Positions 6,326 to 51,036 of a DNA stretch of 64,000 nt are shown here, one piece after another. Source of the stretch: an uncultured Acidobacteriota bacterium. Lineage in GTDB: Bacteria; Acidobacteriota; Thermoanaerobaculia; UBA5066; Gp7-AA6. Every line of letters begins with the position of its first letter. Position 1 is the first letter of the stretch. A model generated the notes under the pieces. That model saw only the letters and a list, made by a program, of their open reading frames with translations. It searched no databases and was not told the origin of the DNA. Location of the stretch: NCBI GenBank assembly GCA_963805495.1, contig CAWDUQ010000002.1:1453828-1517827 (forward strand), given 5' to 3'. A program made the translations under genes and the position numbers.

Positions 6326-7585
<1,260 letters not shown>

Positions 7586-17411: not shown

Positions 17412-18544
17412 CGGACCTTCTCTCCTCCTTCCGCCGGTCCGATCTTCTCCCCCTGGCCGAGAAGACGCTCGCGGGGGAACGCCTGTCCTTCGAGGACGGG
17501 GTCCGCCTCTTCGAGACGCGCGACTTCCTCGGGCTCGGCCGCCTCGCCAACCACGTCCGCGAGGCGCGCCACGGGAATCTCGCGTTCTACAACGTCAACC
17601 GCTATCTGAACCCGACGAACCTCTGCTGGGTCGACTGCGCCCTCTGCGCCTGGGCGAAGAAGGTCAACGAGCCGGGCGGCTACGAGATGGCGATCGACGA
17701 ATGTGTGGCCGAGGCCGGCCGCGGCTACAGCGACGCCGTGACCGAGCTCCACATCGTCGGCGGCCTCCACCCGACGTGGCCCTTCGAGTACTACACGGGC
17801 CTGCTCCGCGCACTCAAGTCGAAGTTTCCGGGCGTGCACCTGAAGGCCTGGACGATGGTGGAGGTCGACTGGATCGCGAAGATCGGGGGGCGGGCGCTGC
17901 CGGACGCCATTCGGGAGTTGAAGGCCGCGGGGATGGACTCCTGCCCCGGCGGCGGCGCGGAGATCTTCGCCCGGCGCGTCCGCGACATCATCTGCACCAA
18001 CAAGATCTCGGGCGAGCGCTGGCTGGAAGTCGCGCGCGAGTGCCACCGGCAGGGCGTCCGGACCAACGCCACGATGCTCTACGGCCACGTCGAGACGGTC
18101 GAGGAGCGCGTCGACCACCTGCTGCGCCTGCGCGCGCTGCAGGACGAGACCGGCGGAATCCCGGGTCTGATTCCGCTGGCCTTCCATCCCGAGAACACGC
18201 CGCTTTCGCACCTGCCCTCTTCGACCGGGCAGCTCGACCTGCGGGTGATCGCGGCCTCCCGGCTCCTGCTCGACAACGTGCCGCACATCAAGGCCTACTG
18301 GATACAGATCGGCACGAAGCTCGCCCAGGTCGCGCTCTTCTTCGGCGCCGACGATCTGGTCGGCACCGTCGTCGACGAGATCATCACGCACGCGGCCGGC
18401 GCGACGACCGCTTCCGGGCTCACGCGCGCCGATTTCGAGCGCATCATCCGCGAGTCGGGCCGCGAGCCCTACGAACGGGACTCGGAGTACAGGCGCGTCG
18501 AAAGGCGCGGGCCCCGCGCGGAGCCGGTTCCGGCGCTCGCATGA
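17408..18544 (+). CDS. Radical SAM menaquinone-biosynthesis enzyme of the futalosine pathway (MqnC/MqnE family).
   Basis: NVNRYLNPTNLCWVDCALCAW CxxxCxxC cluster and overall MqnC/MqnE-like layout. 378 aa. Confidence 0.7.
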   Translation: MTDLLSSFRRSDLLPLAEKTLAGERLSFEDGVRLFETRDFLGLGRLANHVREARHGNLAFYNVNRYLNPTNLCWVDCALCAWAKKVNEPGGYEMAIDECVAEAGRGYSDAVTELHIVGGLHPTWPFEYYTGLLRALKSKFPGVHLKAWTMVEVDWIAKIGGRALPDAIRELKAAGMDSCPGGGAEIFARRVRDIICTNKISGERWLEVARECHRQGVRTNATMLYGHVETVEERVDHLLRLRALQDETGGIPGLIPLAFHPENTPLSHLPSSTGQLDLRVIAASRLLLDNVPHIKAYWIQIGTKLAQVALFFGADDLVGTVVDEIITHAAGATTASGLTRADFERIIRESGREPYERDSEYRRVERRGPRAEPVPALA

Positions 18545-20520: not shown

Positions 20521-21183
20521 ATGGCTCAGCCGCCAGGATTCATCGGATCGTCCATCGGCCGGAAGGTCGTCATGGCCGTGACCGGGATCGTTCTCGTCGG
20601 GTTCGTCATGGTCCACATGCTCGGCAACCTCCAGGTGTATCTGGGCCCCGGGCCGATGAACGCCTACGGCGAGTTCCTCCGGCACCTCCTCCACGGGACC
20701 GGGCTCTGGATCGCCCGGGCCGTCCTGCTGACGGCCGTGGTCCTCCACATCTGGGCGGCGACCTCGCTGACCCTGACGAGCCGCCGGGCCCGCCCGATCG
20801 CCTACCGCGAGCAGAAGTGGAAGGAGTCGACCTACGCCTCCCGGACGATGCGCTGGAGCGGGGTCATTCTCTTCTTCTTCATCATCTATCACCTGATGCA
20901 TTTTACGATCGGCAACGCCCACCCGAGCTTCATCGAGGGCGACGTCTACCACAACTTCGTCGCCGGGTTCCGGAGTGTCCCGGTCTCGATCGTCTACATC
21001 GTCGCGATGGTGCTGCTCGGCCTCCACCTCCGGCACGGCGTGTGGAGCATGTTCCAGACGCTCGGCGTCTCGCACCCCCGCGCGATCGCGGCGGCGAAGA
21101 CGGGCGCCTGGATCTACGCCTTGATCGTGGTGCTCGGCAACATTTCGTTCCCCCTGGCCGTCCTGGCGGGAATCATCCGGTGA
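20521..21183 (+). CDS. sdhC: Succinate dehydrogenase/fumarate reductase cytochrome b558 subunit.
   Basis: 5-TM b558-type SdhC with [11 protein letters not shown] and haem-ligand His residues. First gene of sdhCAB. Confidence 0.85.
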
Positions 21184-21202
21184 CCGGAGGAGCACCCAAG
21201 CC

Positions 21203-23112
<1,910 letters not shown>

Positions 23113-23116
<4 letters not shown>

Positions 23117-23895
23117 AGATCACGCTGAAGGTCTGGCGGCAGAAGGACGCGAAGGCCCCGGGCGGCTTCGTCACGTACGAGGCGCCCGACGTGAACGAAG
23201 AGATGTCGTTTCTCGAGATGCTCGACGTCGTCAACGAGGGCCTGATCGGGAAGGGCGAAGGGCCGATCGCGTTCGACCACGACTGCCGGGAGGGCATCTG
23301 CGGCACCTGCGGGGTCATGATCAACGGGCGCGCCCACGGCCCGCGGGCGAAGACGACCGCCTGCCAGCTCCACATGCGAAGCTTCTCCGACGGTGACGTC
23401 CTGACGATCGAGCCCTGGCGCGCGGGGGCCTTCCCGGTCGTCAAGGACCTGATCGTCGACCGCGGGGCATTCGACCGCATCATCGCGGCCGGCGGCTTCA
23501 TTTCCGCCGCAATCGGCGGAGCACAGGACGCCAATACGATCCCGATCCGGAAGGAGAACGCCGACCTCGCGATGGACGCCGCGGCCTGCATCGGCTGCGG
23601 CGCGTGCGTCGCGGCCTGCCCCAACGCCTCCGCCATGCTCTTCGTCTCGGCCAAGATCTCCCAGCTGGCGCTGTTGCCGCAGGGCCAGCCCGAGCGCGCC
23701 GACCGGGCGCGGAACATGGTCGCCCGGATGGACGCCGAGCGCTTCGGCACATGCACCAACCACGGCGAGTGCGAGGCGGCCTGTCCCAAGGGCATCCGCA
23801 TGCAGTTCATCGCCATGATGAACGCGGACTACGTGAAGGCGAAACTGACGGAGGGGCGGCGCCCGAGCGAGCTCTCCGACGGCGGCTCGGGGTAG
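23113..23895 (+). CDS. sdhB: Succinate dehydrogenase iron-sulfur subunit.
   Basis: [10 protein letters not shown] (2Fe-2S), [12 protein letters not shown] and [12 protein letters not shown] cluster motifs. ATG overlaps the sdhA stop (ATGA). Confidence 0.9.
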
Positions 23896-23898
23896 ACC

Positions 23899-25302
23899 GT
23901 GGCAGACGCGAAGAAGACCCGTACCGAGTCCGACACCATGGGGCCCGTCGAGGTCGCGGCCGACCGCTACTGGGGCGCGCAGACCGAGCGGTCCCTCCAC
24001 CACTTCCGGATCGGCCCCGAGCGTTTCCCGCGGGAGCTCATCCGGGCGCTCGGCATCCTCAAGAAGGCGGCGGCCGTCGTCAACCGGGACCGCGGGGCGC
24101 TGCCCGCGGACAGGGCCGACGCGATCATCCAGGCGGCCGACGAGGTCATCGCGGGAAAGCTCGACGACCATTTCCCCCTCTCCGTCTGGCAGACCGGCAG
24201 CGGCACGCAGACCAACATGAACGCCAACGAGGTCATCTCCAATCGCGCGATCGAGATCCTCGGCGGCGTGCTCGGCTCGAAGAAGCCCGTCCACCCCAAC
24301 GACGACGTCAACAAGAGCCAGTCCTCCAACGACACCTTCCCGACCGCGATGCACATCGCCGCGGTCGAGCAGACCCGCTTCCGGCTGATCCCGGCCGTCC
24401 GCAAGCTGCGCGACACGCTGGACCGGAAGGCGAAGGAATTCGCGGGCATCGTCAAGATCGGCCGCACGCACCTCCAGGACGCCGTCCCGATGACACTCGG
24501 CCAGGAGATCTCGGGCTGGGTCTCGCAGCTCGACCACTCGATCGTCCACCTGGAGGATTCCCTGCCCCACCTCCAGGAGCTCGCCCTCGGCGGGACAGCG
24601 GTCGGCACGGGCCTGAACGCTCCCGCGGACTTCGGCCAGAAGACCGCCGCCGAGATCGCGAAGCTGACCGGGATCCCCTTCGTCTCCGCTCCCAACAAGT
24701 TCGAGGCGCTGGCGGCGCACGACGCGCTCGTCGCCGGGCACGGCGCGGTCCGCACGCTCGCGGCGTCGCTGATGAAAATCGCCAACGACGTCCGGTGGCT
24801 CGCCTCCGGCCCGCGCTCGGGTCTCGCCGAGATCCGGATTCCGGAGAACGAGCCGGGCTCCTCGATCATGCCGGGCAAGGTCAATCCGACGCAATCCGAA
24901 GCACTGACGATGGTCTGCGCCCAGGTCTTCGGCAACGACGTGGCCGTCACGATCGGCGGCGCGTCGGGCAACTTCGAGCTGAACGTCTACAAGCCGCTCA
25001 TCATTGCCAACTACCTGCGGTCGGTGCACCTGCTGGCCGACGCGTGCGAGTCCTTCGAGGAGCACTGCGCCCGCGGCATCGAGCCCGATCTCGAGAAGAT
25101 CCGGGAGCACGTCGGCCGCTCGCTGATGCTCGTCACGGCGCTCGCTCCGCGGATCGGCTACGACAAGGCCGCGGCGATCGCCAAGAAGGCGCACAAGGAA
25201 GGAACCACCCTCAAGGAGGCGGCGATCTCCCTCGGCCACGTCACCGCCGATGAGTTCGACCGCGACGTCCGTCCCGAGAACATGGTCGGGCCGGGGAACT
25301 GA
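23899..25302 (+). CDS. fumC: Fumarate hydratase class II.
   Basis: [25 protein letters not shown]-terminus and [16 protein letters not shown] signature. Confidence 0.93.
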
Positions 25303-25784: not shown

Positions 25785-26519
25785 TCAGCGCAGCAGCGAC
25801 GCGAGCTTCGTCTCGGCCTCGGCGTGCAGAGTGGGCGGAGCCCCGTAGAACGCGCCCGCGGCGCGTCCCTCCGCGTCGAAGACGAGCAGCGTCGGCACGG
25901 CGCTCACGTCGCCGAAGGCGCGGACGAGGTCGGGCTGGCCGAGGACCCAGGTCAGCGGGAGGTTGAGCTCGCCGACGAGCTTTCGGACTTTCGGCTCCTC
26001 GGACTCGATCGCGACGGCCGCGACGACGAGCTTCTCCCCGTACTGCTTCTTGAGCTCGCCGAGCCAACCGAGCGTCCGGCGGCAGGGCGGGCACCAGGTT
26101 GCCCAGAACTCCACCAGCACGACGCGGCCTTTCAGGTCCCCGCGCGAGACCGTGCGGCCGTCGAGGTCGGTCAGCGTGACCGCGGGAAACGCCGCCACCT
26201 CCGTGCCCTTCGACGGCGACGCCGCGGCGCGCGCGTCGGCCTTGCGCCCGGCCAGCAGGAGCTCGATCATGCGGGTCAGGTCGGCCTGGAACCGCTCGTG
26301 CGCGGCCGCGCTCTTCAGCGGCGCGTAGCGACCGCCTTCCCCCTTCTCCCCCTTCCCGTAGAAGCCGAAGTCGTTGGGAGTCGCCACCAGCACGTCGTCG
26401 ACGAAGATCGCGGGATAGCGGGTCACGCCGAAGCGCTTCGCGAGGGCCGAGTCACCGTAGTTCTCCGAGATGAAGCGCGCCTTGCCTCCGAACTTCTGAA
26501 CGACGCTCTGGGCCAGCAA
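25785..26519 (-). CDS. TlpA-like thiol-disulfide oxidoreductase (thioredoxin fold, WATWCPPC) with an extra N-terminal thioredoxin-like half-domain. It is in-frame with the upstream gene across a single TGA.
   Basis: VVLVEFWATWCPPCRRTLGWLGELKKQY TlpA/ResA motif. The N-terminal 100 aa (ARFISENYGDSALAKRFGVTRYPAIFVDD) look like the C-terminal half of a thioredoxin fold. The annotated start is a TTG. Confidence 0.65.
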   Translation of the reverse strand: MLAQSVVQKFGGKARFISENYGDSALAKRFGVTRYPAIFVDDVLVATPNDFGFYGKGEKGEGGRYAPLKSAAAHERFQADLTRMIELLLAGRKADARAAASPSKGTEVAAFPAVTLTDLDGRTVSRGDLKGRVVLVEFWATWCPPCRRTLGWLGELKKQYGEKLVVAAVAIESEEPKVRKLVGELNLPLTWVLGQPDLVRAFGDVSAVPTLLVFDAEGRAAGAFYGAPPTLHAEAETKLASLLR

Positions 26520-26540: not shown

Positions 26541-27698
26541 TCAGGTGTAGGGCCACCGGACGAGGGTGACGGTGACGGTCGCGGGCACCGCGGCGGGGCG
26601 CGGCCGGGCCGGCTCGAGCGCCGCGAAGTAGCGGGGAAGGACCTCGGCGACAACCGCCGAGGCCTGCGCGGGAGAGGCTCCGGACGCCGCGGATGCGGCA
26701 TCGGCCTCGCCCGCCTCCAGGAAGATCCGGCCGATGCTCTGGTCGACCCCGCCGGTCTCGGAGAGGCGGGGCCGAAGCTCCGCCAGCTTCGCCTTCGCCT
26801 GCTCGATCGTGAGCTCCGGGACCCTTCCCGTCAGGGGCGCGGCGCGCAGCACCGCCTGGAGGTACCGGAGCATTGCGCCGTAGGAGAGGCCGGCCGCATC
26901 GAGCTCGCGCGCTTCCTTGAGCGTCGAGCTCGCCGTGATGAACTCCCGGTGCCGGTCGATCGAAGCCGGCGGCCTGTACGCGGACAGCAGTTCGCCCTCG
27001 AGCACGTCGAGCTCGGCCCGGAGGCTGCGCACCGGCGGCGGCCGCAGGCTCGACGGCTCGGACAAGGTTCGACAGAAGGCGCCGAGTTCGCGCTGCGCCC
27101 GGGCGACGCCGAGGTAGTAGAAACCGACCTCGGGCATCGTGTTGCGCTCGTAGTCGAGGCTCGCCTCGTAGAAGACCTTGACCGCCGGAACCGAGGCCTC
27201 GCCGACCGCCCGCACCGCCGCGGGCGTCACGCCCTCGAGCGCCTTCGGCGAAGGCGCGCCGAGTGTCTTCCCGAGGTCCTGCCCCATGCGCTTCCAGGCG
27301 GCCTCGAACGCGGCGTCGCTGTTGCGGTCGGCCGGTGGCAGCGACCCCAGGTACCGGGAGGCTTCGAGGTCCGGCTGTACGCTCGCGAGACGCTGCAAGG
27401 CCAGGAGCCGATGCCGGCCTCGCATGGCCTCTTCGACGCGTTCCATGGCCGGCAGGGCGCCTTTCTTGATCTGGAGCCACATCTCGTCCGTCGACGCGTT
27501 CGACTTCAGGTAATCCGACCAGCCCCGGATCTCGGCGGCGAGCGGGTCGGCCTGCGGCGGCGCGGCGGCGATCGAGGCGAGAAAGGCCGTGGCGACGGCC
27601 GCGGCGGCGAGAAGGACGAGACGGCCCGGGCGCATCGCGGCCCGGAGCATGACACGGGGCGCCGAGCCGAATCGCCGGGCGACCCGTGAGGATCTCAT
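26541..27698 (-). CDS. Secreted hypothetical protein (signal peptide, ~350-aa mostly helical domain). The C-terminus runs into a TGA that is in-frame with the downstream thioredoxin gene.
   Basis: ATG at 27698 overlaps the upstream gene stop (ATGA). Signal MRSSRVARRFGSAPRVMLRAAMRPGRLVLLAAAAVATAFLASIAA. The upstream 188 codons of the long ORF are R/G-rich non-coding. Confidence 0.55.
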   Translation of the reverse strand: MRSSRVARRFGSAPRVMLRAAMRPGRLVLLAAAAVATAFLASIAAAPPQADPLAAEIRGWSDYLKSNASTDEMWLQIKKGALPAMERVEEAMRGRHRLLALQRLASVQPDLEASRYLGSLPPADRNSDAAFEAAWKRMGQDLGKTLGAPSPKALEGVTPAAVRAVGEASVPAVKVFYEASLDYERNTMPEVGFYYLGVARAQRELGAFCRTLSEPSSLRPPPVRSLRAELDVLEGELLSAYRPPASIDRHREFITASSTLKEARELDAAGLSYGAMLRYLQAVLRAAPLTGRVPELTIEQAKAKLAELRPRLSETGGVDQSIGRIFLEAGEADAASAASGASPAQASAVVAEVLPRYFAALEPARPRPAAVPATVTVTLVRWPYT

Positions 27699-38969: not shown

Positions 38970-39410
38970 TCACCTTACCCGAATCGGGCCGGGATCGTAA
39001 AGCTGGTAGAGCATCAGGTAGATCACGACCCCGGTGACCGAGACGTAGAGCCACAGCGGGAACGTCCAGCGCGCCAGGCGCCGGTGCTTCTCGTCCCGGC
39101 GCTTCAGGCCCAGGTAGAGGGTCCGGAGGACCATCGGCACGATGGCGGCGGCGAGGATCGTGTGCGTGGTCAGGATCGTGAAGTACACGAGGCGCACGGG
39201 GCCCTGGCCCGTGAAGCGCACCGAACCGACCGCGGCGTGGTAGACGAGGTAGCAGACGAGGAACACGGCGGAGGTCGAGGCGGCGGCCAGCATCAGCGCC
39301 CGGTGCCGGTCGATCTTCCGGGCCCGGATGGCCCGGTAGCCGAGGACGAGCAGGACCGCGCTCGCCGCGTTCAGCGTCGCGTTGACGGCAGGAAGCTGGG
39401 TGATGTTCAC
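38970..39410 (-). CDS. DUF420-family membrane protein (associated with cytochrome oxidase operons).
   Basis: 4-TM protein. Resembles DUF420 proteins found in caa3/aa3 operons. Confidence 0.6.
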   Translation of the reverse strand: MNITQLPAVNATLNAASAVLLVLGYRAIRARKIDRHRALMLAAASTSAVFLVCYLVYHAAVGSVRFTGQGPVRLVYFTILTTHTILAAAIVPMVLRTLYLGLKRRDEKHRRLARWTFPLWLYVSVTGVVIYLMLYQLYDPGPIRVR

Positions 39411-39424
39411 GGGCGGCTCTCGCC

Positions 39425-39475
39425 CCCGGTCGTAGGGGCGGCCCTTGCGGCCGCCCGAGGGCGGGGACGAGCCCC
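39425..39475. repeat. GC-rich nested palindromic REP-like element (copy 1).
   Basis: ccccggtcgtaggggcggcccttgcggccgccc shares 32/33 nt with 57949..57981. GGGCGGCC/GGCCGCCC 8-bp stem. Outer gtaggggcgg/ccgcccctac arms. Confidence 0.6.
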
Positions 39476-39492
39476 GCCCCTACTCCGGAGAC

Positions 39493-40095
<603 letters not shown>

Positions 40096-40117
40096 GTCGT
40101 TGTTCGCTCCTGCTCTG

Positions 40118-40417
40118 TTACGGCCTGGGCAGAACCAGCTCGCCGATTCCGACCGACACGAGGATGCATCCCAGGATCAGCGTCGACGCGAAAAGGACGC
40201 CCATGATGCGGCGCTCGAACTTGAGGTGCATGAAGTACAGGGCGACGAGCACCGCCTTGATGATCGCGAGTCCCACGATCCCCCCGGCGAGCACGAGCTC
40301 GGAATGGTGCGGAATGATCGCCCACGCGATCTCGCCGATCGTGAGCCCCAGCAGCCACCAGAAGATGGCCATGTAGTTGGGTATCTGGTGCGTGTCGCTG
40401 TGTGCTTCGGACGACAT
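40118..40417 (-). CDS. ctaF: Cytochrome c oxidase subunit IV (bacterial CtaF-type small subunit).
   Basis: GAAGGGGGA Shine-Dalgarno sequence. 3-TM 99-aa protein. Position matches ctaF. Confidence 0.7.
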   Translation of the reverse strand: MSSEAHSDTHQIPNYMAIFWWLLGLTIGEIAWAIIPHHSELVLAGGIVGLAIIKAVLVALYFMHLKFERRIMGVLFASTLILGCILVSVGIGELVLPRP

Positions 40418-40427
40418 CGTTCCCCCT

Positions 40428-40535
40428 TCAGTGCGCTCGCGAGACGATGAAGAGAATCGACCCGAGGAAGAGACCCGCGCCGAGGCTCACGAGGATCCAG
40501 AGGACCCGGCGGTTGGTCGCGTCGGTCGCGGTCAT
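40428..40535 (-). CDS. 35-aa single-TM micro-protein translationally coupled to ctaB (ATGA overlap).
   Basis: MTATDATNRRVLWILVSLGAGLFLGSILFIVSRAH. ATG overlaps the ctaB stop. Its own stop lies 10 nt before the coxIV ATG. Confidence 0.35.
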   Translation of the reverse strand: MTATDATNRRVLWILVSLGAGLFLGSILFIVSRAH

Positions 40536-41425
40536 CGATCGAACACCATGAGCCCCAGAAGGGCCGGCAGGTACAGCACCGACGCGAGGAAGAGACGCCG
40601 CGCCGCCGGGACCGTGCGCTGCCAGGCGAAAACGAGGGTGAAGGCGAGGAAGGCCGTACCGAGCAGCAGCGCCCCCCAGAGGTAGCCCCGGCCCGCCGAG
40701 GCGAGGAACCCGGCCGCGAGGGTCACGGGCAGGAGAGCCGTGGCGTAGAGGACGGCTTGCCGGCCGGTCGAGGAGCCGTCCCGGTCGGTCACGGCGAGCA
40801 TCGGGAAGCCTCCGCGGGCGTAGTCCTCGCGGTAGAGCCAGCCGATCGCCAGGAAGTGCGGGAGCTGCCAGAGAAACAGGATGGCGAAGAGGCCCCAGCC
40901 GGCGGGGCCGAGGGACCCGCGCGCGGCGGCCCAGCCCATGAGCGGTGGCAGGGCCCCGGGTACCGCCCCGACGACCGTGCAGAGCGAGCTGACGCGCTTG
41001 AGCGGCGTGTACACGAAGACGTACGAGAAGATCGTCGCCGCGCCGAGCGCGAGGGTCAGCGGATTGACGGCCGCCAGCAGCGCCAGCCCCACGACGGAAA
41101 GGGCGATTCCGAAGGCGCGGGCGTCTTCGGGGCGGAGCCGGCCCGAGGGAATGGGACGGCGGCTCGTGCGGTGCATGAGCGCGTCGGTTTCCCGCTCGAC
41201 GTAGTTGTTGAGGGCCGAGGCTCCCCCGCACAGGAGCGCCGTGCCGGCCATGAAGATCAGGAAGGCCAGGAAAGAAAAGCTCCCCGGACCGCCGACGGCG
41301 TAGCCGACCCCGGCGGTCAGGAGGACGAGCATCGTGATGCGTGGCTTCGCGAGCTCCAGGTAGTCCCCGAAGCGCGGGGAAACCTCCCCGGCGGGCAGCG
41401 CGGCCGCGGCGGGAGCTACTTCCAC
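40532..41425 (-). CDS. ctaB: Protoheme IX farnesyltransferase (heme O synthase).
   Basis: GDYLELAKPRITMLVLLTAGVGY, NNYVERETDALMHRTSRRPIPSG and QLPHFLAIGWLYREDY motifs. GTG start inferred at 41425. Confidence 0.85.
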   Translation of the reverse strand: MEVAPAAAALPAGEVSPRFGDYLELAKPRITMLVLLTAGVGYAVGGPGSFSFLAFLIFMAGTALLCGGASALNNYVERETDALMHRTSRRPIPSGRLRPEDARAFGIALSVVGLALLAAVNPLTLALGAATIFSYVFVYTPLKRVSSLCTVVGAVPGALPPLMGWAAARGSLGPAGWGLFAILFLWQLPHFLAIGWLYREDYARGGFPMLAVTDRDGSSTGRQAVLYATALLPVTLAAGFLASAGRGYLWGALLLGTAFLAFTLVFAWQRTVPAARRLFLASVLYLPALLGLMVFDR

Positions 41426-42399
41426 CCGGCTGCCCTTCCCGGCATCGCGGGCCGGATCGGAACGACGTTGTTGCGGCGGCGGTCGAGGGCGAGCGCCGAG
41501 ACCGTCAGGGCGACGGTCGATCCCAGCAGCAGGGCGCCCGTCGCGACGTGCGCCGTCGTGAGAATGACGTCCTTCTTCGACAGCACCGTCAGCGCTCCGA
41601 GGGTGACCTGGACGGCGACGAGCCCGCACAACCCGGCGGCGGCGCGCGATAGCCCCCGGCGCCCCGAACGGAACGCGCGGACCGCCGAAGCGGCGACGAG
41701 CACGGCGATCGCGAGGGCCATGATCCGGTGAGCGAAGGCGATCGCCACGGGGAGGGTGCCGAGGGGCGGAACGATCCGCCCGAGCGCGAGCGGGAAGTCC
41801 GGAATCGCGAGTCCGGACTTCGTATGCCGCATCACGGCGCCCACCACAAGCTGCACGAAGATGACGGCGCCGGTCGCCCCGGCGAGCCGCGCGACGGGGC
41901 TCGCGCGGAACGCACCGGTGAGGCTCGCCGGTGCGGCCTCGCGGAAGCGGGGCGAAGTGGCGACGGCGATCGTGACGGTCAGGACGAAAAAGATCTGCGC
42001 CAGGCAACCGTGCGCCACGGAGATCGGCGTCGGGAGAAAGTAGATCACGGTCAGGCCGCCGAGGAGCCCCTGGGCGACGACGGCCGCGAGCGCGGCGTAG
42101 CCGAGCCTCCGCACCCACGCACGGTCTTCGCGGCGCGCGAGCCAGATCGCGAGGATGATCGTGAGAAAGCCGACGCCGGAGGCGATGAGCCGGTGCGTGT
42201 GCTCGAACCGGATGCCGCCGACCATCTTCGACAGCGGGAATGTGAACATGTTCCAGCCGTACGTGGTCGGCCAGTCGGGCACCGAGAGGCCGGACTCGGT
42301 CGACGTCACCAGCCCGCCCGCGACGATCAGCACGAGCGTCGCCGCGGCCACGAGGACCGCGTAGGCGTGGAGGCCGCGGGGACCGGGGCGATCAGCCAT
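41416..42399 (-). CDS. ctaA: Heme A synthase (COX15/CtaA).
   Basis: 8-TM protein with conserved His pairs (FEHTHRLIA, HVATGALL). ATG at 42399 overlaps the end of coxI. Confidence 0.8.
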   Translation of the reverse strand: MADRPGPRGLHAYAVLVAAATLVLIVAGGLVTSTESGLSVPDWPTTYGWNMFTFPLSKMVGGIRFEHTHRLIASGVGFLTIILAIWLARREDRAWVRRLGYAALAAVVAQGLLGGLTVIYFLPTPISVAHGCLAQIFFVLTVTIAVATSPRFREAAPASLTGAFRASPVARLAGATGAVIFVQLVVGAVMRHTKSGLAIPDFPLALGRIVPPLGTLPVAIAFAHRIMALAIAVLVAASAVRAFRSGRRGLSRAAAGLCGLVAVQVTLGALTVLSKKDVILTTAHVATGALLLGSTVALTVSALALDRRRNNVVPIRPAMPGRAAGWK

Positions 42400-44179
42400 G
42401 CGCCTTGGCGGGGGCCGGGCCCGTCGGGGCCTCGTTCTGGGGCCAGTAGTCCGCACCGTGCCCGGGGACGCTGTACTCGTAGGGCCCGCGGTGCACCGTC
42501 GGGATGCGCCCCGTGAAGTTCTCGTGCGGCGGAGGCGACGAGGTCTGCCACTCGAGCGTGTTCGCGTGCCAGGGGTTGGGTCCCGCGACCTTGCCCCGGC
42601 GCAGCGACAGGAAAAAGTTGAGGATGAGGATCAACTGCGCCGCTCCGAGGACGAAGAGCGAGATCGTCATGAACTGGTTCATCGGCTGGAGGTTCTTGAA
42701 CAACGAGTACTGGGTGTAGTCGTAGATCCGGCGCGGCATGCCCCGCATCCCCAGGAAGTGCATCGGGAAGAACACCAGGTTGAACGTGACGAAGGTGAGC
42801 GCCCAGTGAATCTTGCCCCACGTCTCGTTCATCATCCGGCCGAACATCTTCGGGTACCAGTAGTAGAGACCCGCGAAGGCCCCGAAGAGCGAGCCGCCGA
42901 AGAGTACGTAGTGGATGTGGCCCACGATGAAGTAGGTGTCGTGGATGAAGATGTCGACCGGCGTCGAGGCCATGAAGATGCCGGAGAGCCCTCCGATGAC
43001 GAACATGGCCACGAACGAGAGGGCATTCAGCATGGGCGTCGAGAAGTGAACGTCGCCGCCCCAGACGGTTCCGAGCCAGTTGAACGTCTTGATGGCCGAA
43101 GGCACGGCGATGACCATCGTCGAGATCATGAAGGTCGTGCCGAGGATGGGGTTCATGCCGCTCTGGAACATGTGGTGTCCCCAGACGATGAACCCGAGCC
43201 CTGCAATCCCCATCATCGAGTACGCCATGGCGCGGTAGCCGAACACGGGCTTGCGGCAGAAGACGGGCAGGATCTCCGAGGTGATGCCCATCGCGGGCAG
43301 GATCATGATGTAGACCTCGGGGTGCCCGAAGAACCAGAAGAGGTGCTGCCACAGGAGGACCTGGCCCCCGCCGGCGTTCGTCAGCGGCTGCCCAGAGATG
43401 ACGAGTCCGGCCGGCAGAAAGAACGTCGTGCCGAGCGTCCGGTCGAAGAGCAGCATGATGAGCGCGGCCGAGAGCACGGGCAGCGCGAGCAAAAGAAGAA
43501 CGGCCGTGATGAAGAGCGCCCACACGGTCAGGGGCATCCGGAAGAAGCTCATGCCGGGCGCCCGCATGTTGACGATCGTCGTGATGAAGTTGACCGACGT
43601 CAGGAGCGACGAGAGCCCCAGGATCAGGAGCGAGATCAGCCAGATCGTCTGGCCCCGCGGCTGGATCGCGGAGAGCGGCGCGTAGGAGGTCCAGCCTCCG
43701 GCCGCCGCGCCCCCGGTCACGAAGAAGGAGTAGATGATGAGGACCGCCGCGGGCACGGCCACCCAGAAGGACATCATGTTGAGCTTCGGGAAGGCCATGT
43801 CCCGGGCGCCGATCTGGATGGGGACGACGAAGTTGCCGAACGCGCCGATCAGGATCGGCATGATCGCGAAGAAGATCATGATCGTCGCGTGCATCGTGAA
43901 GAGCGAGTTGTAGAACTCGGGCAGCATCACGCCGCCCGGCATCCCTTCCGGCACGAGCTTGCCCATGAACGGCAGGGGCCGCCCGGGCCAGGCGAGCTGG
44001 TACCGGACGAGGGTCGCGAGCAGCCCCCCGATCACGAGCATCGTGAGCGCGTAGAAGAGGTACTGGATGCCGATCACCTTGTGGTCCAGCGAAAAGACGT
44101 ACTTGCGCAGGAACGTGGTCGGCGCGGCGTGTCCGCCGGCGTGGGCGTGCGCCTCCCGGGGCAGGGCGACCGTGCTCAA
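42392..44179 (-). CDS. ctaD: Cytochrome c oxidase subunit I.
   Basis: Canonical COX1 (HKVIGIQYLF, WFFGHPEVYIMILP, HHMF). 595 aa. Confidence 0.95.
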   Translation of the reverse strand: MSTVALPREAHAHAGGHAAPTTFLRKYVFSLDHKVIGIQYLFYALTMLVIGGLLATLVRYQLAWPGRPLPFMGKLVPEGMPGGVMLPEFYNSLFTMHATIMIFFAIMPILIGAFGNFVVPIQIGARDMAFPKLNMMSFWVAVPAAVLIIYSFFVTGGAAAGGWTSYAPLSAIQPRGQTIWLISLLILGLSSLLTSVNFITTIVNMRAPGMSFFRMPLTVWALFITAVLLLLALPVLSAALIMLLFDRTLGTTFFLPAGLVISGQPLTNAGGGQVLLWQHLFWFFGHPEVYIMILPAMGITSEILPVFCRKPVFGYRAMAYSMMGIAGLGFIVWGHHMFQSGMNPILGTTFMISTMVIAVPSAIKTFNWLGTVWGGDVHFSTPMLNALSFVAMFVIGGLSGIFMASTPVDIFIHDTYFIVGHIHYVLFGGSLFGAFAGLYYWYPKMFGRMMNETWGKIHWALTFVTFNLVFFPMHFLGMRGMPRRIYDYTQYSLFKNLQPMNQFMTISLFVLGAAQLILILNFFLSLRRGKVAGPNPWHANTLEWQTSSPPPHENFTGRIPTVHRGPYEYSVPGHGADYWPQNEAPTGPAPAKAHG

Positions 44180-45024
44180 GAGTTGCCTCCCTTTTCACTG
44201 ACGACGACGACCGGGGCCGCCGCGGGTTGCGCCTGCGGGGCGGCGGCCGGATTCTGTTCGGCGGCCGCCGCCGCGGCCTGCTCGGCCATCCACTTCTGGA
44301 AGTTCTCGGGCGTGTCGACCGTGACGAAGCCCTTCATCCGGAAGTGACCCAGGCCGCACAGCTCGGCGCACGCGATCTCCCAGTTCCCCACGCGGTTGCC
44401 CTCGAACCAGATGCGCGTCTTCATCCCCGGAACCGCATCCTGCTTGACGCGAAACTCCGGAAGGAAGAACGAATGGATGACGTCCTTGGACGTCAGCGTC
44501 GCGACGACCGGCTTGCCCACGGGGAAGTGCAGCTGGTTCAGCGTGACGACGTCGTCGGCCGTGTCGAACTTGCCGTCGGCGCCGGCGTACCGGATGTTCC
44601 AGGCGAACTGCTCGGCCGTCACGTGGACCTCGATCGCGTCCTTGGGCATCCGCTCCTTGATTTCTTCCCAGACTCGGCGCGAGAGCAGCGCGACCATCAC
44701 GCAGATCAAAGCCGGGACGATCGTCCAGATCACCTCGAGCCGGTTGTTGCCGTGCGTGTACACGGCCTTGCGCCCCTCGCGGTGCCGGTATTTCCAGAGG
44801 AAGAAAATCAGCAGGGCCTCGACGATCACGAAAATGACGCCGGTGATCCACGCGATGAGGTGCCAGATCGAGTCGATCTCGTGAGCGTAGGTCGACGCCT
44901 GCTCCGGCAGGTGCAGCCAGAACGGCAGGGCCCCCGCGGCGGCCGGCGCGAGGGCGGCCACGAAAAAGAAAAGCGCCGGCCGGAGAGCCCGGACGGCGCC
45001 CGAGAAACGCATTGTGTTGTTCAC
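44176..45024 (-). CDS. ctaC: Cytochrome c oxidase subunit II (CuA; no fused cytochrome c domain).
   Basis: CuA site HSFFLPEF...CAELCGLGHFRM. No CxxCH motif. Confidence 0.9.
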   Translation of the reverse strand: MNNTMRFSGAVRALRPALFFFVAALAPAAAGALPFWLHLPEQASTYAHEIDSIWHLIAWITGVIFVIVEALLIFFLWKYRHREGRKAVYTHGNNRLEVIWTIVPALICVMVALLSRRVWEEIKERMPKDAIEVHVTAEQFAWNIRYAGADGKFDTADDVVTLNQLHFPVGKPVVATLTSKDVIHSFFLPEFRVKQDAVPGMKTRIWFEGNRVGNWEIACAELCGLGHFRMKGFVTVDTPENFQKWMAEQAAAAAAEQNPAAAPQAQPAAAPVVVVSEKGGNS

Positions 45025-45043: not shown

Positions 45044-45841
45044 CTATCCCTTGAAGGTGAAGTCGAGCGTTTTCGACTCGTTGCCCGTGATCGTCACGTT
45101 CTGGGTCTGGGTGCCGTACTTCTCGTGCCACGCCTCGATCACGTAGTTGCCGGGCGGGAGATTCTTGATCTCGAAGGCGCCCTGGTCGTTGGTCACCGCG
45201 AAGAAGGGGTGGTTGAAAACGCCCGTGTAGGCGCCCATCCACTTGTGGACGTCGCACTTGAACCGGATCGGGACCTCGACCGAGTCGAACTTCTTGATCG
45301 TTTCCATGCCCTTGAAGGGCTGGCCGATGTTGAATTCGGCGTTCTTCTTCGGAAGGGCGTGGATGTTGTGCAGCGTGCCGTCGCTGTTGAGGACCTTCAG
45401 CGGCTGGCCCGCCATGATGCCGAAGACGTGCGGGTGGTACTGGCAGCCGTGCTGATCGAGGGTCACCGCCTCGGTCGGCACCGGGTAGTTGCCCGAGGCG
45501 CCTTCCTTGACGTAGACGAGCACCCACTCGAGGGTCTTGTTCGGGTTGACGACGACTTCCTCCTCGTGCACCGGCTCCTTGTGCTCGGACTTGCAGAAGG
45601 CGTCGGCGTCCATCTTGATGGTCGGCATCGCCGGGGCGGTGCCGTCGAAATTGACCTTGCCGGTCAGGGTCGCGCCGCCGGTCGCCGGGGCTGCCGCGGC
45701 GGCCGCCGCCGGGGCCGCCGACGTCGAGGTCGCCGGGGCCTCGTCTTCCATCAATGCGTCCTCGTCCTTCTGGCCGCCGCAGGCCAGGATCGGCAGGGAC
45801 GCGGCCGCCGCCAGAAGCAGAAAGAGAGCGCGCTTGGACAT
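45044..45841 (-). CDS. Lipoprotein with a cupredoxin-like (type-1 copper) domain fused to a carboxypeptidase-regulatory-like beta-sandwich.
   Basis: Lipobox LPILACGG. Candidate copper ligands ...LHNIH...FKCDVHKWM (His, Cys-x2-His-x2-Met). C-terminal GAFEIKNLPPGNYVIEAWHEKYG transthyretin/CarbopepD_reg-like motif. Confidence 0.5.
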   Translation of the reverse strand: MSKRALFLLLAAAASLPILACGGQKDEDALMEDEAPATSTSAAPAAAAAAAPATGGATLTGKVNFDGTAPAMPTIKMDADAFCKSEHKEPVHEEEVVVNPNKTLEWVLVYVKEGASGNYPVPTEAVTLDQHGCQYHPHVFGIMAGQPLKVLNSDGTLHNIHALPKKNAEFNIGQPFKGMETIKKFDSVEVPIRFKCDVHKWMGAYTGVFNHPFFAVTNDQGAFEIKNLPPGNYVIEAWHEKYGTQTQNVTITGNESKTLDFTFKG

Positions 45842-45964
45842 CGAAGTCTCCTTAACGTGAAATCCCGGTAGACCGTGCTTCCGGACCCGCGCGCTTCTGC
45901 GAAGGCGCCGCCAGAGCCCGGGCATCATACCCAAGCCGTTCCACGCTTTTCAAGCAGCGCTGGA

Positions 45965-46627
45965 ATGGTATCGTCAATCCACAGAGTGCTTTCGACGACG
46001 CTCCTCGCCGAGGACCTCGACAAATCGTTCGTGGGACCTCCCCTCTTCTCCGGGTTCTCCGCCCGGATAGAAGCCGGTCTGACCGCGGTCACCGGCCGGA
46101 ACGGCAGCGGCAAGACGACCTTGCTGAAGATCCTTGCGGGGTTGCTGCGTCCGACCTCCGGACGCGTGCGCGTCGAGCGGGACGGCCGGGTGCTCTCCGG
46201 CGACGAGCGGCGCCTGGCGATCGGCTGGGCCGGGCCCGACCTCGCCTTCTACGGAGAGCTGACCGGAGTCGAAAACCTGAGCTTCTACCGGGAGGCCGCC
46301 GGGCAGGCGCTTCCGGAAGCCGAGATCCGGCTTCGGCTCGCGGAAGTCGGCCTGGCGGAGTCGGCCGCCGACCGGCGGGTCGACGAGTACTCGACGGGCA
46401 TGCGCCAGCGCCTGCGCGTGGCGTTCGCCGTGCTTTTCGACCCGGCGATCGTACTCCTCGACGAGCCGTTCCTGGGGCTCGACGTCGAGGGTCGCGAGAT
46501 CGTGTACGCCCTCGTCGAACGGGCCCGGCAGCGCGGCGCCGTGGTGCTCGCCTCGAACGACGAGCGGGACTTCGCCCGGCCGGAGCAGCGCATCGAGCTC
46601 GGCGCGGGGCCCGGCCGCACCGTATGA
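45965..46627 (+). CDS. ccmA: Heme exporter ATP-binding protein CcmA.
   Basis: Walker A GRNGSGKTT, signature YSTGMRQR and Walker B LLDEP. Short (220 aa) CcmA-type ABC ATPase upstream of ccmB. Confidence 0.8.
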   Translation: MVSSIHRVLSTTLLAEDLDKSFVGPPLFSGFSARIEAGLTAVTGRNGSGKTTLLKILAGLLRPTSGRVRVERDGRVLSGDERRLAIGWAGPDLAFYGELTGVENLSFYREAAGQALPEAEIRLRLAEVGLAESAADRRVDEYSTGMRQRLRVAFAVLFDPAIVLLDEPFLGLDVEGREIVYALVERARQRGAVVLASNDERDFARPEQRIELGAGPGRTV

Positions 46628-47295
46628 GCCTGCCCGGGCGGATCTGGGTCGTCTGCGCCAAGGACGCCCGCCAGGAGCTGCGGAGTCGGATCGCCACCCT
46701 CGCGGTGCTCTTCTTCGCCGCGACGGCGCTGGCGCTCACTTCGTACTCGATCGGCCCGTTCGGCCTCCCGGCGGCGGACCGGCCCCCTCTCCAGGCGGCC
46801 CTGCTCTGGATCATCCTTTTTTTCGCGGCGGCGACCGGCCTGCCGCGCGCCTTCGTCCAGGAAGAGGAAACGGGGACCGGGCTGGCGCTGCGCAAGACGC
46901 TGTCGGGCTCGCTGGTGCTGGCCGGAAAGGCGCTCTTCAACTTCGGCCTCTTTCTCGCGATCGCCGCCGTCGTGATCCCCGGCTTCTTCGTGCTCCTCGA
47001 CTGGCGGGTGGCCGCCCCGGGCACGCTCGCCGCGACGATTCTCTGCGGCGGCTACGGGCTCGCGGTCGTTTCGACGTTCCTTTCGGCCCTGACGGCGCGG
47101 GCCGGCCAGAGGAACGTCCTCTTCGTGCTGGTCGCGTTCCCGCTCGTGCTGCCGCTGCTCCTCACGGCGATCTCCGCCACCCTCGCGGCGACGCGCGGAA
47201 CGGACGCCTGGTCGCCCCTGCGGGTCCTGATCGCCTACGACGGTGCGGCGTCCTGCGCGGCGTATTTGCTTGCGGAAGTGGCCTGGGAGGATTAG
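46624..47295 (+). CDS. ccmB: Heme exporter protein CcmB.
   Basis: 6-TM CcmB-like permease. ATG overlaps the ccmA stop (ATGA). Confidence 0.8.
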   Translation: MSLPGRIWVVCAKDARQELRSRIATLAVLFFAATALALTSYSIGPFGLPAADRPPLQAALLWIILFFAAATGLPRAFVQEEETGTGLALRKTLSGSLVLAGKALFNFGLFLAIAAVVIPGFFVLLDWRVAAPGTLAATILCGGYGLAVVSTFLSALTARAGQRNVLFVLVAFPLVLPLLLTAISATLAATRGTDAWSPLRVLIAYDGAASCAAYLLAEVAWED

Positions 47296-47324: not shown

Positions 47325-47987
47325 ATGAAATTCCTGAAGGCGCTGCTGCTCCCGTACATGGCCGCCGTCGTCGGCGCGGCCTTCCTGTGGCCGCAGCCCG
47401 CGTCCGGTTTCATCGGCGAATCGTCCCGGATCGTCTTCTTCCACGTCCCCTGCGCGTGGACGTCGACGCTCGCGTTCGTGTTCGCCGCCATTTATTCGCT
47501 CGCCTACCTTCGCACGCGCAACCCGTGGCACGACGAGATCGCGTGCGCCGCCGTCAAGATCGGCCTCCTCTTCGGCGTCCTGACGCTCATCACCGGGTCG
47601 CTTTTCGCAAACATCATGTGGGGCTCGTGGTGGAACTGGGACCCCCGGGAGTCTTCGTACCTCCTGCTCGTCTTCCTCTATGCGGCCTACCTGTTTCTCC
47701 GGGCGGCCGTCGACGACCCCGAGCGGAGGGCCAGGATCGCCGCCGCCTATGCCCTCTTTGCGGCCGTGCTGATGCCCTTCCTGGTGTTCATCGCGCCCCG
47801 CGTCACGGCCTCGCTCCACCCCCAGACCGTCATCAACCCGCAGGGCAAGATCCTGATGGACACGCCCACCCGGGCCGTCTTCTTCGGCGCGCTCGCCGGG
47901 TTCTCGGGGCTGTTCGCCTGGATGCTTTCGCTCGAGGCCCGGGCCGCGCGTCTCGCCCGCCGCCAGGGCCGGCGCCCCGGCGCCTAA
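47325..47987 (+). CDS. ccmC: Heme exporter protein CcmC.
   Basis: W-rich motif WGSWWNWDPRE and conserved His residues. GGAGG Shine-Dalgarno sequence. Confidence 0.9.
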   Translation: MKFLKALLLPYMAAVVGAAFLWPQPASGFIGESSRIVFFHVPCAWTSTLAFVFAAIYSLAYLRTRNPWHDEIACAAVKIGLLFGVLTLITGSLFANIMWGSWWNWDPRESSYLLLVFLYAAYLFLRAAVDDPERRARIAAAYALFAAVLMPFLVFIAPRVTASLHPQTVINPQGKILMDTPTRAVFFGALAGFSGLFAWMLSLEARAARLARRQGRRPGA

Positions 47988-48173
47988 GGGGACGGCGGGG
48001 CGGAAGGCAAGGGTCGCGGCCGGGGGGCTCTTCCCAACCGACGCGCGGGCCCGGCCCGGGACGGGGTCGAGGGGGTCGGAAGATGCCTCCGCCCCTGATG
48101 CATTCGCATCACAGGCCGCGACCTGTCCCCTGCGACAGTTGAACTCGATGAAGATAAGGGAGAGACTGAAGCC

Positions 48174-48284
48174 ATGAGCAGCCTCGGCTACCTGGCCGCC
48201 GTCAACGTGGTGATCTGGGTGGGACTGTTTTTCTACCTCTGGCGCCTTGACCGGCGCCTGACCGAATCGGAGCGCAAGTCATGA
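48174..48284 (+). CDS. ccmD: Heme exporter protein CcmD (36 aa; too short for the ORF track).
   Basis: MSSLGYLAAVNVVIWVGLFFYLWRLDRRLTESERKS: single TM followed by a basic tail. AAGGGAGAG Shine-Dalgarno sequence. The stop overlaps the ccmE ATG. Confidence 0.6.
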   Translation: MSSLGYLAAVNVVIWVGLFFYLWRLDRRLTESERKS

Positions 48285-48694
48285 AGAAGGGCTACTGGAT
48301 CGCCGCGGTGCTCACCCTCGCCTTTCTCGGCTTCGGCCTGACCGCGTTCCAGAAGACGCTGACCCCGTACCTGTCCTTCGACGAGGCGCGCAAGTCGACT
48401 GGGATCGTCCAGGTCATGGGCGGCCTCGACAAGCAGAGCGACCGCTACGACACGGGCAAAGAAGAGCTCTCGTTCGACCTGGTCGACCCGGCGGGCCACC
48501 GCATGCCGGTCGTCTACCGGGGCGTCCGTCCGGGCAACTTCAAGGACGCGATCTCCATCGTCGCGATCGGCCGCTTCGAGGAGGGCCGCATCGAGGCCGA
48601 GAAGCTCCTCGTGAAGTGTCCCTCGAAGTACCAGGGGGCGGAGGTCGAGAAGGCCTACTCGGCGCAGCCCGCGGCTCCGGCCCAAAAGAGCTGA
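48281..48694 (+). CDS. ccmE: Cytochrome c-type biogenesis heme chaperone CcmE (Cys-type CxxxY variant).
   Basis: TM anchor plus OB fold. LLVKCPSKYQG where the canonical form has LAKHDENY. Confidence 0.85.
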   Translation: MKKGYWIAAVLTLAFLGFGLTAFQKTLTPYLSFDEARKSTGIVQVMGGLDKQSDRYDTGKEELSFDLVDPAGHRMPVVYRGVRPGNFKDAISIVAIGRFEEGRIEAEKLLVKCPSKYQGAEVEKAYSAQPAAPAQKS

Positions 48695-51036
48695 TGTACA
48701 TCTGGCCCGGGGTGGCGGCGATCTGGGGAGCGCTCTTTGCGGGGATCGCCTCGGCGTTCGTCTACTTCCTCGTCGACCGGGGGCGCAAGGAACTCCTGCC
48801 GCTCGCTCGGACGACCTATACGGCGTTTGCGACCTGCGTCGTCGTCGCGTCGGCGATCCTCATGACTCTCCTTCTGCAGCACCGGTTCGACGTGGCCTAC
48901 GTCAACTCCTACTCGGCCACCGACCTGCCGCTCCACTTCCTAATCTCGACGTTCTGGGCCGGCCAGGAGGGTTCCTTCCTGCTGTGGTGCTTCTGGGGAG
49001 CGCTCATCGGGCTCTTCGTCTGGCGGAGCGCCAAGGAGCAGGAAGCGCCCGTGATGATCGTCTACATCGCGACCTTTCTCGGCATCATCGCGATCCTCTG
49101 CAAGCAGAGCCCCTTCAAGCTGCTGCCCCCGCCCGTGCCGCAGGACGGCGTCGGCCTGAATCCCCTTCTCCAGGACCCGTGGATGGTGATCCATCCGCCC
49201 GTGATGTTCATCGGGTTCGCGTCCCTCTCGGTCCCCTTTTCCTTCGCGATCGCCGCTCTCTGGAAGAAGCGCTGGGACGGCTGGATCACCCGGACGCTTC
49301 CCTGGGCGCTCCTGACCTTCCTGACTCTGGGAACCGCCATCCTCATGGGCGGCTACTGGGCGTACAAGACGCTCGGCTGGGGCGGATACTGGGGCTGGGA
49401 CCCGGTCGAGAACACGAGCCTCGTCCCCTGGCTCTTTACGGCGGCCCTCGTCCACGGCATGTTCCTGCAGCGCGCGCGCAAGCGACACCGCAAGGTCAAC
49501 CTGATCCTCGCCTGCACGGCCTACGCGACCATCCTCTACGGCACGTTCCTGACGCGCTCGGGAGTCCTCGCGGATTTCTCGGTGCACTCGTTCATCGATC
49601 TCGGGATCACGGGGTGGCTGGTCGGAATCCTCGGCACGTTCATCGGACTGTCCATCATCCTGATCGCCTGGCGGTGGCGGTCGATTCCCACGGCCTCGGA
49701 CGAGGAGGGATCGCTGCTCTCCCGCAGCGTGCTCTTGATTCTGGGGATCGCGGTCTTCTGCGCTCTCGGCCTCGTGATCCTCCTCGGCACGTCGGCCCCG
49801 ATCCTGACGCGGCTCTCCGGCACGCCCTCGCAGGTCCAGACCGCTTTTTACGGCCGGACGACCACCCCCGCGGGCTTTCTGCTCATCCTGCTGTCGGGGA
49901 TCGTCGGATTCGTGTCCTGGAAGGGCACGACGTTCCGGGAGCTCCTCAGGAACTCTTACCGGTCCCTCGCCGTCGCCGCCGTCGTGATCGTCACGGCCCT
50001 CATCCTGGGAGCGAGGGGGACCGAGCCGCTCGTTCTCATCTTCACCGCGGCCTTCGCGGCCGACATGAACCTCCGCGCCGTCCTGCGCAAGACCTCGAGC
50101 GGAAAGCTCGGCGGGGCGGGCGGATACCTCGCCCACGTCGGCGTGGGCATCATGCTCGCCGGCGTCGTCATCTCGGGGGCCTACGCGAAGACGCAGCGGC
50201 TGACCTTGCGGGTCAACACGCCGACCAAGTCGGGCGACGTGACGCTGACGTACCTGCGGGTCGTGCCCGGGAGCGGCCGCACCAAACAGGCCATGGAGGT
50301 CCGCGTCGTCACGGCGGCCGGGAAGACCTTCTACGCCTACCCCAAGATGTACGAGAACAGCCGGACCGGCCAGCTCATGGTGAACCCTTCGATCAGGAGC
50401 TCGGCCGTGACCGACCTCTACATCGCTCCGCAGCAGTACGACCCGGGCCAGCCCGAAACGGTCGGCCGCGACATCCGGCTGACGAAGGGAACGACCACCA
50501 ACATCGACGGCACCGGCTTCACGTTCCGCGACTTCAACGCCGACCGGTCGGCGATGATGCGGGGCGAGAAGACCGTCCTCGTCCTGACCGACCTGACGAT
50601 CACTCCGCCCGACGGCTCGCAGCACGACATGACCCTCAAGTACGTCTTTCACCTCGACGGCGGCGAGACCGAGGCCGAGGCCGTGCCGATCCCCGGCTAC
50701 CCCGACGCGAAGGCGCGCGTCCTCGCCGTCTCCCCCAACGACGGCGCCGTGATCCTCCGGTTGAACGGCGTCTCGAAGAACCCGGGCGACGAGTTCTCCC
50801 CGGCGACCGTCGAGTCGCTTTCGATCGAGGTGACGCGCAAGCCGCTCATCGCGCTCGTCTGGGGCGGCTTCTACGTCATGATGGCCGGGGGGCTCCTCGC
50901 TTTCATCAAGCGCACCGGCGAGGCGCGCCGCGCCGTCGTCGAGGCGGGCCAGGCGATGGTGGCATCCCGTACCGAGCCGCCGGTCGGCGCGACGGGGCCC
51001 GCCCTCCCGGCCCACACCCGCTCCCGCCTCGAGTAG
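48694..51036 (+). CDS. ccmF: Cytochrome c-type biogenesis protein CcmF.
   Basis: WGGYWGWDPVENTSLVPW WWD motif. Multiple TM helices. 781 aa. Confidence 0.9.
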   Translation: MYIWPGVAAIWGALFAGIASAFVYFLVDRGRKELLPLARTTYTAFATCVVVASAILMTLLLQHRFDVAYVNSYSATDLPLHFLISTFWAGQEGSFLLWCFWGALIGLFVWRSAKEQEAPVMIVYIATFLGIIAILCKQSPFKLLPPPVPQDGVGLNPLLQDPWMVIHPPVMFIGFASLSVPFSFAIAALWKKRWDGWITRTLPWALLTFLTLGTAILMGGYWAYKTLGWGGYWGWDPVENTSLVPWLFTAALVHGMFLQRARKRHRKVNLILACTAYATILYGTFLTRSGVLADFSVHSFIDLGITGWLVGILGTFIGLSIILIAWRWRSIPTASDEEGSLLSRSVLLILGIAVFCALGLVILLGTSAPILTRLSGTPSQVQTAFYGRTTTPAGFLLILLSGIVGFVSWKGTTFRELLRNSYRSLAVAAVVIVTALILGARGTEPLVLIFTAAFAADMNLRAVLRKTSSGKLGGAGGYLAHVGVGIMLAGVVISGAYAKTQRLTLRVNTPTKSGDVTLTYLRVVPGSGRTKQAMEVRVVTAAGKTFYAYPKMYENSRTGQLMVNPSIRSSAVTDLYIAPQQYDPGQPETVGRDIRLTKGTTTNIDGTGFTFRDFNADRSAMMRGEKTVLVLTDLTITPPDGSQHDMTLKYVFHLDGGETEAEAVPIPGYPDAKARVLAVSPNDGAVILRLNGVSKNPGDEFSPATVESLSIEVTRKPLIALVWGGFYVMMAGGLLAFIKRTGEARRAVVEAGQAMVASRTEPPVGATGPALPAHTRSRLE

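Follow-up and report, generated by a model that had tools for sequence, protein, structure and literature searches.

The open reading frame at positions 48281..48694 (+) of a 64-kb window, by which we mean the whole stretch of DNA analysed here, encodes a genuine CcmE heme chaperone in which a cysteine occupies the position equivalent to the heme-binding histidine H130 of the E. coli protein. The host is a Thermoanaerobaculia-like acidobacterium, and we consider it highly probable that the protein works in heme delivery as a Cys-type CcmE of the System I* kind within an acidobacterial ccmABCDEF operon. As such it is an ordinary member of the described CPSKY/System I* subfamily, and of a type that is already known. 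The Cys-type variant was described in 2006 (Allen et al., as cited in PMC3601427 and PMC3884852) and is referred to as System I* (PMC3601427). A 2011 review gives CPSKY as its majority motif and records it from some bacteria including Desulfovibrio, with later genomes adding delta-proteobacteria, Chloroflexi and Firmicutes (PMC3601427). System I* was originally defined by the absence of CcmH, and yet about one third of the genomes with a Cys-type CcmE do have CcmH (PMC3601427).

Identity and Predicted Structure of the CcmE Protein

The ccmE gene begins with ATG, codes for 137 amino acids and has a GC3 of 0.93. Its translation contains EKLLVKCPSKYQGAEV, just as it was quoted for 48281..48694 in an earlier, sequence-only reading of this DNA, and the product matches the Pfam CcmE model PF03100 with 60.4 bits, above the curated threshold of 24.6. 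The heme-binding motif is of the CxxxY type, C113-P-S-K-Y117, and is encoded at 48617..48631 (+), with a TGT codon for Cys113 at 48617-48619 and the codon for Tyr117 at 48629-48631. In a phmmer search of the PDB sequences the segment 'llvkCpskYqgaeveka' lies opposite 'vlakHdenYtppeveka' of E. coli CcmE (1SR3, 8CE8), such that C113 is aligned with H130, Y117 with Y134, and K112-C113-P-S-K-Y117 with K129-H130-D-E-N-Y134, residue for residue; the same search places the query opposite 'lmtkCp' of the Cys-type CcmE of D. vulgaris (2KCT). A family alignment had been proposed in the sequence-only reading as a check on its claim of a cysteine at the H130-equivalent position, and in our MAFFT alignment with an E. 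coli CcmE sequence C113 is likewise found in the H130 column. The claim had been described as vulnerable to a displaced cysteine with a histidine nearby, and the protein shows no such arrangement: it has a single Cys (residue 113) and a single His (residue 73), the latter located in a variable loop and not conserved in an alignment of 39 family members. Where a canonical His-type System I CcmE has its histidine, this protein has a cysteine in the same column.

None of the eight NCBIfam CcmE equivalog models comes near its cut-off (the highest score is 45 bits versus 126), and we take these models to be based on His-type proteins. Their failure indicates that there is a large CPSKY subfamily for which NCBIfam has no dedicated equivalog, and which is recognised by the Pfam domain model only.

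An AlphaFold2 model built on the 39-sequence alignment (mean pLDDT 90.8) consists of a helix at residues 3-26, which is the predicted membrane anchor, followed by a six-strand beta-barrel spanning residues 42-112; the CPSKY segment comes directly after the last beta-strand, which ends at residue 112. When the model was compared with the PDB using Foldseek, the four best matches (8CE8_E, 1J6Q, 1LM0 and 1SR3) were all CcmE structures, and 2KCT was found at rank 9. The protein therefore has the topology of the family, with a single N-terminal anchor and then an OB-fold barrel, periplasmic by family definition, and with the predicted heme-binding residue placed right behind the barrel and followed by xxxY. 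The alignments, the PF03100 match and the Foldseek result together bear out the claim of a CcmE with cysteine in place of H130.

The ccmABCDEF Operon

The operon comprises six genes in the order ccmA-B-C-D-E-F, with ccmE in fifth place. Its description in the sequence-only reading as complete, and as belonging to a bacterium of high GC, is upheld by Pfam and NCBIfam matches and by the GC content of the window (68.6%). The first gene, ccmA (45965..46627, +), encodes the ATPase of the heme-handling ABC complex and is matched by Pfam ABC_tran with 78 bits, with NCBIfam TIGR01189 giving 110.8 bits, under its cut-off of 131.6. Its longest open reading frame runs from a GTG at 45875, and the ATG at 45965 (MVSSIHRV...) is the more likely start. 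The ccmA stop overlaps by 4 nt the start of ccmB (46624..47295, +), which encodes the permease subunit of the ABC complex (Pfam CcmB PF03379, 66.6 bits, cut-off 24.9). It is followed by ccmC (47325..47987, +), coding for the heme-presenting WWD protein (Pfam Cytochrom_C_asm, 102.7 bits; TIGR01191 ccmC, 115.6 bits), in which the WWD motif WGSWWNWDPRE at residues ~99-109 is flanked by His40 and His165. The small ccmD gene (48174..48284, +) encodes a single-helix protein of 36 aa that belongs to the CcmD_alt family according to TIGR04391 CcmD_alt_fam (41.4 bits, cut-off 24); the Pfam CcmD_alt model scores 20.5 bits, under its cut-off of 23.5. The ccmD stop overlaps the ccmE start (ATGA), and the ccmE stop in turn overlaps the ATG of ccmF (TGATG). 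The ccmF gene (48694..51036, +) encodes a holocytochrome c synthase of 780 aa that is matched by Pfam Cytochrom_C_asm and CcmF_C and by TIGR00353 (272 bits), and that aligns with the T. thermophilus CcmF 6ZMQ with 212 bits. It carries the WWD motif WGGYWGWDPVEN and has a histidine at all four conserved 6ZMQ positions (IHPP, LVHG, SVHSF and LAHVG), and no CxxC is present among its 780 residues.

The overlaps between ccmA and ccmB, ccmD and ccmE, and ccmE and ccmF imply that these genes are translationally coupled. The operon terminates at ccmF, and the next gene is a convergent one encoding a metallo-beta-lactamase (MBL)-fold protein. The association of ccmE with ccmABCD and ccmF is also kept in related loci.

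We note that the spacer between ccmC and ccmD (47988..48173, +), a G-rich segment of 186 nt, is unusually long amid genes that otherwise overlap. Its conservation is limited to the last ~80 nt and to the closest relatives, and a longer ccmD frame reaching into it was considered and offers no plausible extension. An Rfam scan of the whole 64-kb window, including this spacer, gave no match, and a scan for promoters and terminators inside the ccm operon gave nothing over shuffle expectation.

Proposed Mode of Heme Attachment and Transfer

In the mechanism that we propose, helix 3-26 would anchor CcmE in the inner membrane such that the OB-fold faces the periplasm, and CcmABCD would present heme to CcmE via the WWD domain of CcmC. 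By analogy with homologous proteins, and in keeping with the thioether-like covalent chemistry put forward in the sequence-only reading, the heme would then be attached through Cys113, most likely by a thioether bond that joins the sulfur to one of its vinyl groups, and Tyr117 would probably act as an axial ligand of the iron. The resulting holo-CcmE would pass its heme to CcmF for ligation to the CXXCH of an apocytochrome, possibly without CcmH, and the homologues suggest that neither CcmH nor CcmG may be needed.

The E. coli protein (1SR3, 8CE8) has in common with the window CcmE the PF03100 domain, the N-terminal anchor, the OB-fold and a conserved tyrosine four residues past the heme-binding residue, and its operon neighbours CcmABCD and CcmF are the same. 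The two are ~25% identical, and they differ in the motif itself, KHDENY in E. coli versus KCPSKY here, and in the bond, which is His-N to vinyl in E. coli, whereas Cys-S to vinyl is presumed for the window CcmE. Furthermore, E. coli needs CcmG and CcmH.

Closer parallels are provided by Desulfovibrio, the Cys-type CcmE of which is the subject of work by Allen et al. 2006, Goddard et al. 2010 and Aramini et al. 2012 (as cited in PMC3601427 and PMC3884852). The Desulfovibrio System I* protein (2KCT) is, like that of the window, bacterial, with a Cys for H130, a K-C-P... start to its CxxxY motif and an OB-fold, and both operons include ccmD and are without ccmH and ccmG; no ccmI is seen in the window's ccm operon either. 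The resemblance is weak in sequence, with a single-sequence phmmer E-value of 0.16 over 47 residues of the 94-residue OB-fold construct, and the hosts are of different phyla, Acidobacteriota versus Desulfobacterota. They also differ in lifestyle, in that Desulfovibrio is a sulfate reducer and the window host, with an aa3 oxidase cluster beside its operon, is probably aerobic or facultative. As summarised in PMC3601427, the ccm operon of D. desulfuricans, with its Cys-type CcmE, supported cytochrome c maturation in E. coli in the absence of both CcmH and CcmG.

The archaeon M. acetivorans also has a CcmE with CxxxY, and the requirement for the cysteine is known genetically: C120 of its CXXXY motif is needed for a heme-stainable CcmE and for holocytochrome c, and replacement by histidine (C120H) is not tolerated (PMC9084895). 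Its CcmF works without CcmH (PMC9084895). The archaeal systems are nevertheless distinguished by the lack of CcmD, a split CcmF and dispersed ccm genes, whereas the window has a ccmD, a single 780-aa CcmF and one operon.

The main rival to thioether attachment is a sub-case of the same CcmE function, in which Cys113 binds heme non-covalently, as a ligand to the iron or within a pocket, such that CcmE acts as a non-covalent carrier with no thioether intermediate. The account in PMC3884852 has the D. vulgaris Cys-type CcmE, which belongs to the 2KCT family and shares the KCP motif, binding ferric heme non-covalently in vitro through its conserved cysteine, and covalent attachment in the window protein is therefore not guaranteed; a thioether is, besides, chemically hard to break for onward transfer of the heme, which makes its reversible use awkward (PMC3601427). 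The D. vulgaris result was obtained, as reported there, with an in-vitro construct lacking CcmABCD, however, and two findings argue for a covalent bond: D. desulfuricans CcmE is reported, in the summary given in PMC3601427, to bind heme covalently in vivo, and the heme-stained band of M. acetivorans CcmE persists on denaturing gels in a C120-dependent manner (PMC9084895). We therefore regard non-covalent carriage as rather unlikely, and favor a Cys113-linked heme, probably held by a thioether, as the form in which it is delivered.

CcmH, CcmG and Cytochrome Substrates

A CxxxY motif in CcmE, here KCPSKY, is one hallmark of System I*, and a ccm operon without ccmG is another that is seen here. 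In a regular-expression search of the 64-kb window, none of the coding frames contained an LRCxxC motif of the CcmH type; every match to the shorter RCxxC was discarded, as it lay at a known gene but in a frame that is not its coding one (opposite the MBL gene and in the region of CtaB, for instance). Pfam scans of ~55 open reading frames from across the window detected no CcmH, no CcmI-like TPR protein and no DsbD/CcdA protein. Among the best 80 of at least 561 related loci, no genuine LRCxxCQ motif of CcmH is present within 8 kb on each side of ccmE (two CcmH-motif matches in related loci proved to be spurious high-GC frames), and a thioredoxin motif occurs near ccmE in only one of these 80. 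The CcmH and CcmG pattern across the window and the flanks of the 80 related loci fits System I*.

We also note that, 22 kb from the ccm operon, a gene at 25785..26519 (-) encodes a Redoxin protein similar to TlpA/ResA, with the active site WATWCPPC. Of the proteins encoded in the window, it is the sole one of thioredoxin fold that might act as a CcmG-like reductase of apocytochromes. No gene for CcdA or DsbD adjoins this gene, and upstream of it lies a gene at ~26541..27680 (-) for a secreted protein with no Pfam match.

Immediately upstream of the ccm operon, and on the opposite strand, is an aa3-type heme-copper oxidase cluster (38970..45024, -) that encodes COX2, COX1, CtaA (COX15; heme A synthase), a UbiA-family heme O synthase, COX4_pro, COX3 and a DUF420 protein. 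Its position beside ccm suggests an aerobic or facultative life for the host of this Cys-type CcmE. COX2 is without a fused cytochrome c domain, and a six-frame search of stop-free stretches of at least 80 aa found no CXXCH in the 64-kb window, from which it follows that neither the surroundings of the ccm operon nor those of the oxidase cluster encode a c-type cytochrome substrate.

These data bear on a second alternative, that the operon is an NrfE-like system dedicated to the maturation of one unusual cytochrome rather than a general one. CcmF does match the NrfE model TIGR03145, with 254 bits, but this is far under the cut-off of 927; the generic CcmF/NrfE model scores higher, and both NrfE models are far under their cut-offs. 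Neither nrfA nor any other CXXCH gene adjoins the operon, and a full ccmABCDE set with a cytochrome c oxidase cluster alongside it also argues against a dedicated role. An Nrf-type system is thus very improbable and can be treated as effectively excluded, leaving general heme delivery by a System I* operon as the favored reading.

Conservation and Distribution of the Cysteine Motif

The KCPSKY motif is present in all of the 120 closest homologues found in a search of 5.8 billion proteins, among which the named ones are annotated as 'cytochrome c maturation protein CcmE [Thermoanaerobaculia bacterium]'; relatives are in this way already recorded as CcmE in public databases. An exhaustive search of 50%-identity cluster representatives returned 1067 clusters at E <= 1e-3, and in the best 150 of these, which extend down to ~32% identity, the cysteine is present in 130 and KCPSKY is exact in 113, with the others being mostly fragments. 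In the alignment of 39 diverse sequences (31-73% identity), G97, K112, C113, P114, S115 and Y117 are invariant. Conservation of K-C-P-S-K-Y on this scale (39 sequences, 120/120 and 130/150) indicates purifying selection on the motif. An error of sequencing or assembly, or a mutation that has recently inactivated a CcmE of the His type, has next to no chance of accounting for Cys113 and is effectively excluded. The sole point in its favor is the probable origin of the window in a metagenome-assembled genome. Against it stand the recurrence of KCPSKY in those 120 homologues from independent assemblies and a core that is invariant down to 31% identity; moreover, the entire motif differs from KHDENY, well beyond one residue, and the reading frame is uninterrupted and coupled in translation to the adjoining genes.

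The motif [LYI][VIT]KCPSKY[QEV] was also sought in one genome per GTDB species, with matches then confirmed as CcmE relatives, and at least 561 species genomes, from about eight phyla, were found to have a confirmed motif-bearing CcmE. The best 80 of these at least 561 loci come from Thermoanaerobaculia and other Acidobacteriota, Holophagales, Zixibacteria, Eisenbacteria, Ignavibacteria, Calditrichaceae, Armatimonadota, Sporomusa/Selenomonadales (Negativicutes) and one deltaproteobacterium, and in most of the 80 the ccmABC(D)EF layout is the same. To judge from these sequences, the Cys type is the norm for the Thermoanaerobaculia-like lineage and is phylogenetically broad; it is the rule in Thermoanaerobaculia and Holophagae, and is also encountered in Zixibacteria, Eisenbacteria, Ignavibacteria, Calditrichia, Armatimonadota and Negativicutes.

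The sequence-only reading was correct in treating the Cys type as a described variant (PMC9084895, PMC3884852, PMC3601427), and its attribution to Desulfovibrio and archaea agrees with the literature for both groups. As a summary of the distribution this shorthand falls short, given the delta-proteobacteria, Chloroflexi and Firmicutes listed in PMC3601427 and the at least 561 species genomes in about eight phyla reported here; the taxonomic increment consists of Acidobacteriota and several candidate phyla. The Cys-for-His swap, the CPSKY motif and a CcmH-less System I* were all published between 2006 and 2011, and genetics exist for a bacterium and an archaeon, leaving little discovery value in the variant itself. 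The value of the present locus is modest and descriptive, and it offers no special handle on the reversal of a thioether or on the dispensability of CcmH.

Two wider propositions can be put forward only tentatively, and we think it doubtful that they will hold. The acidobacterial lineage, probably aerobic in view of the adjacent aa3 oxidase, may have no CcmH, CcmI or dedicated CcmG/CcdA genome-wide, in which case CcmF alone would resolve the thioether between CcmE and heme in an oxidising periplasm; or, on a wider view, System I outside the Proteobacteria may have the CPSKY type as its phylogenetically most widespread and possibly ancestral form, with the His type derived.

Neighbouring Genes

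Between the cox subunit II gene and the divergent ccmA lies a gene for a predicted lipoprotein of 266 aa (45044..45844, -) with the lipobox LPILAC|G, for which the only Pfam match is a CarboxypepD_reg domain at the C-terminus. The central part of the protein contains a conserved His (LHNIH) and a segment, KCDVHKWM, whose Cys-x2-His-x2-Met spacing we take to resemble that of amicyanin-type blue-copper sites. Both the gene and these residues recur in the same place beside ccm in 12 close relatives (loci L001-L012, L046), and two distant homologues keep C..H; a PDB sequence search with this putative copper lipoprotein returned nothing significant. It may be a cupredoxin that donates electrons to the aa3 oxidase.

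Elsewhere in the window, a radical-SAM protein with a CofH/MqnC C-terminal domain by Pfam is encoded at 17228..18544 (+), in line with a futalosine pathway to menaquinone, and after it come genes for succinate dehydrogenase (20521..23892) and fumarase (23899..25302). Near the left end, an open reading frame of 1749 aa (177..5426, +) contains RHS repeats (Pfam PF05593) and is possibly a polymorphic toxin or a cell-surface protein; downstream of it is a short open reading frame (5764..6372) with no Pfam match.
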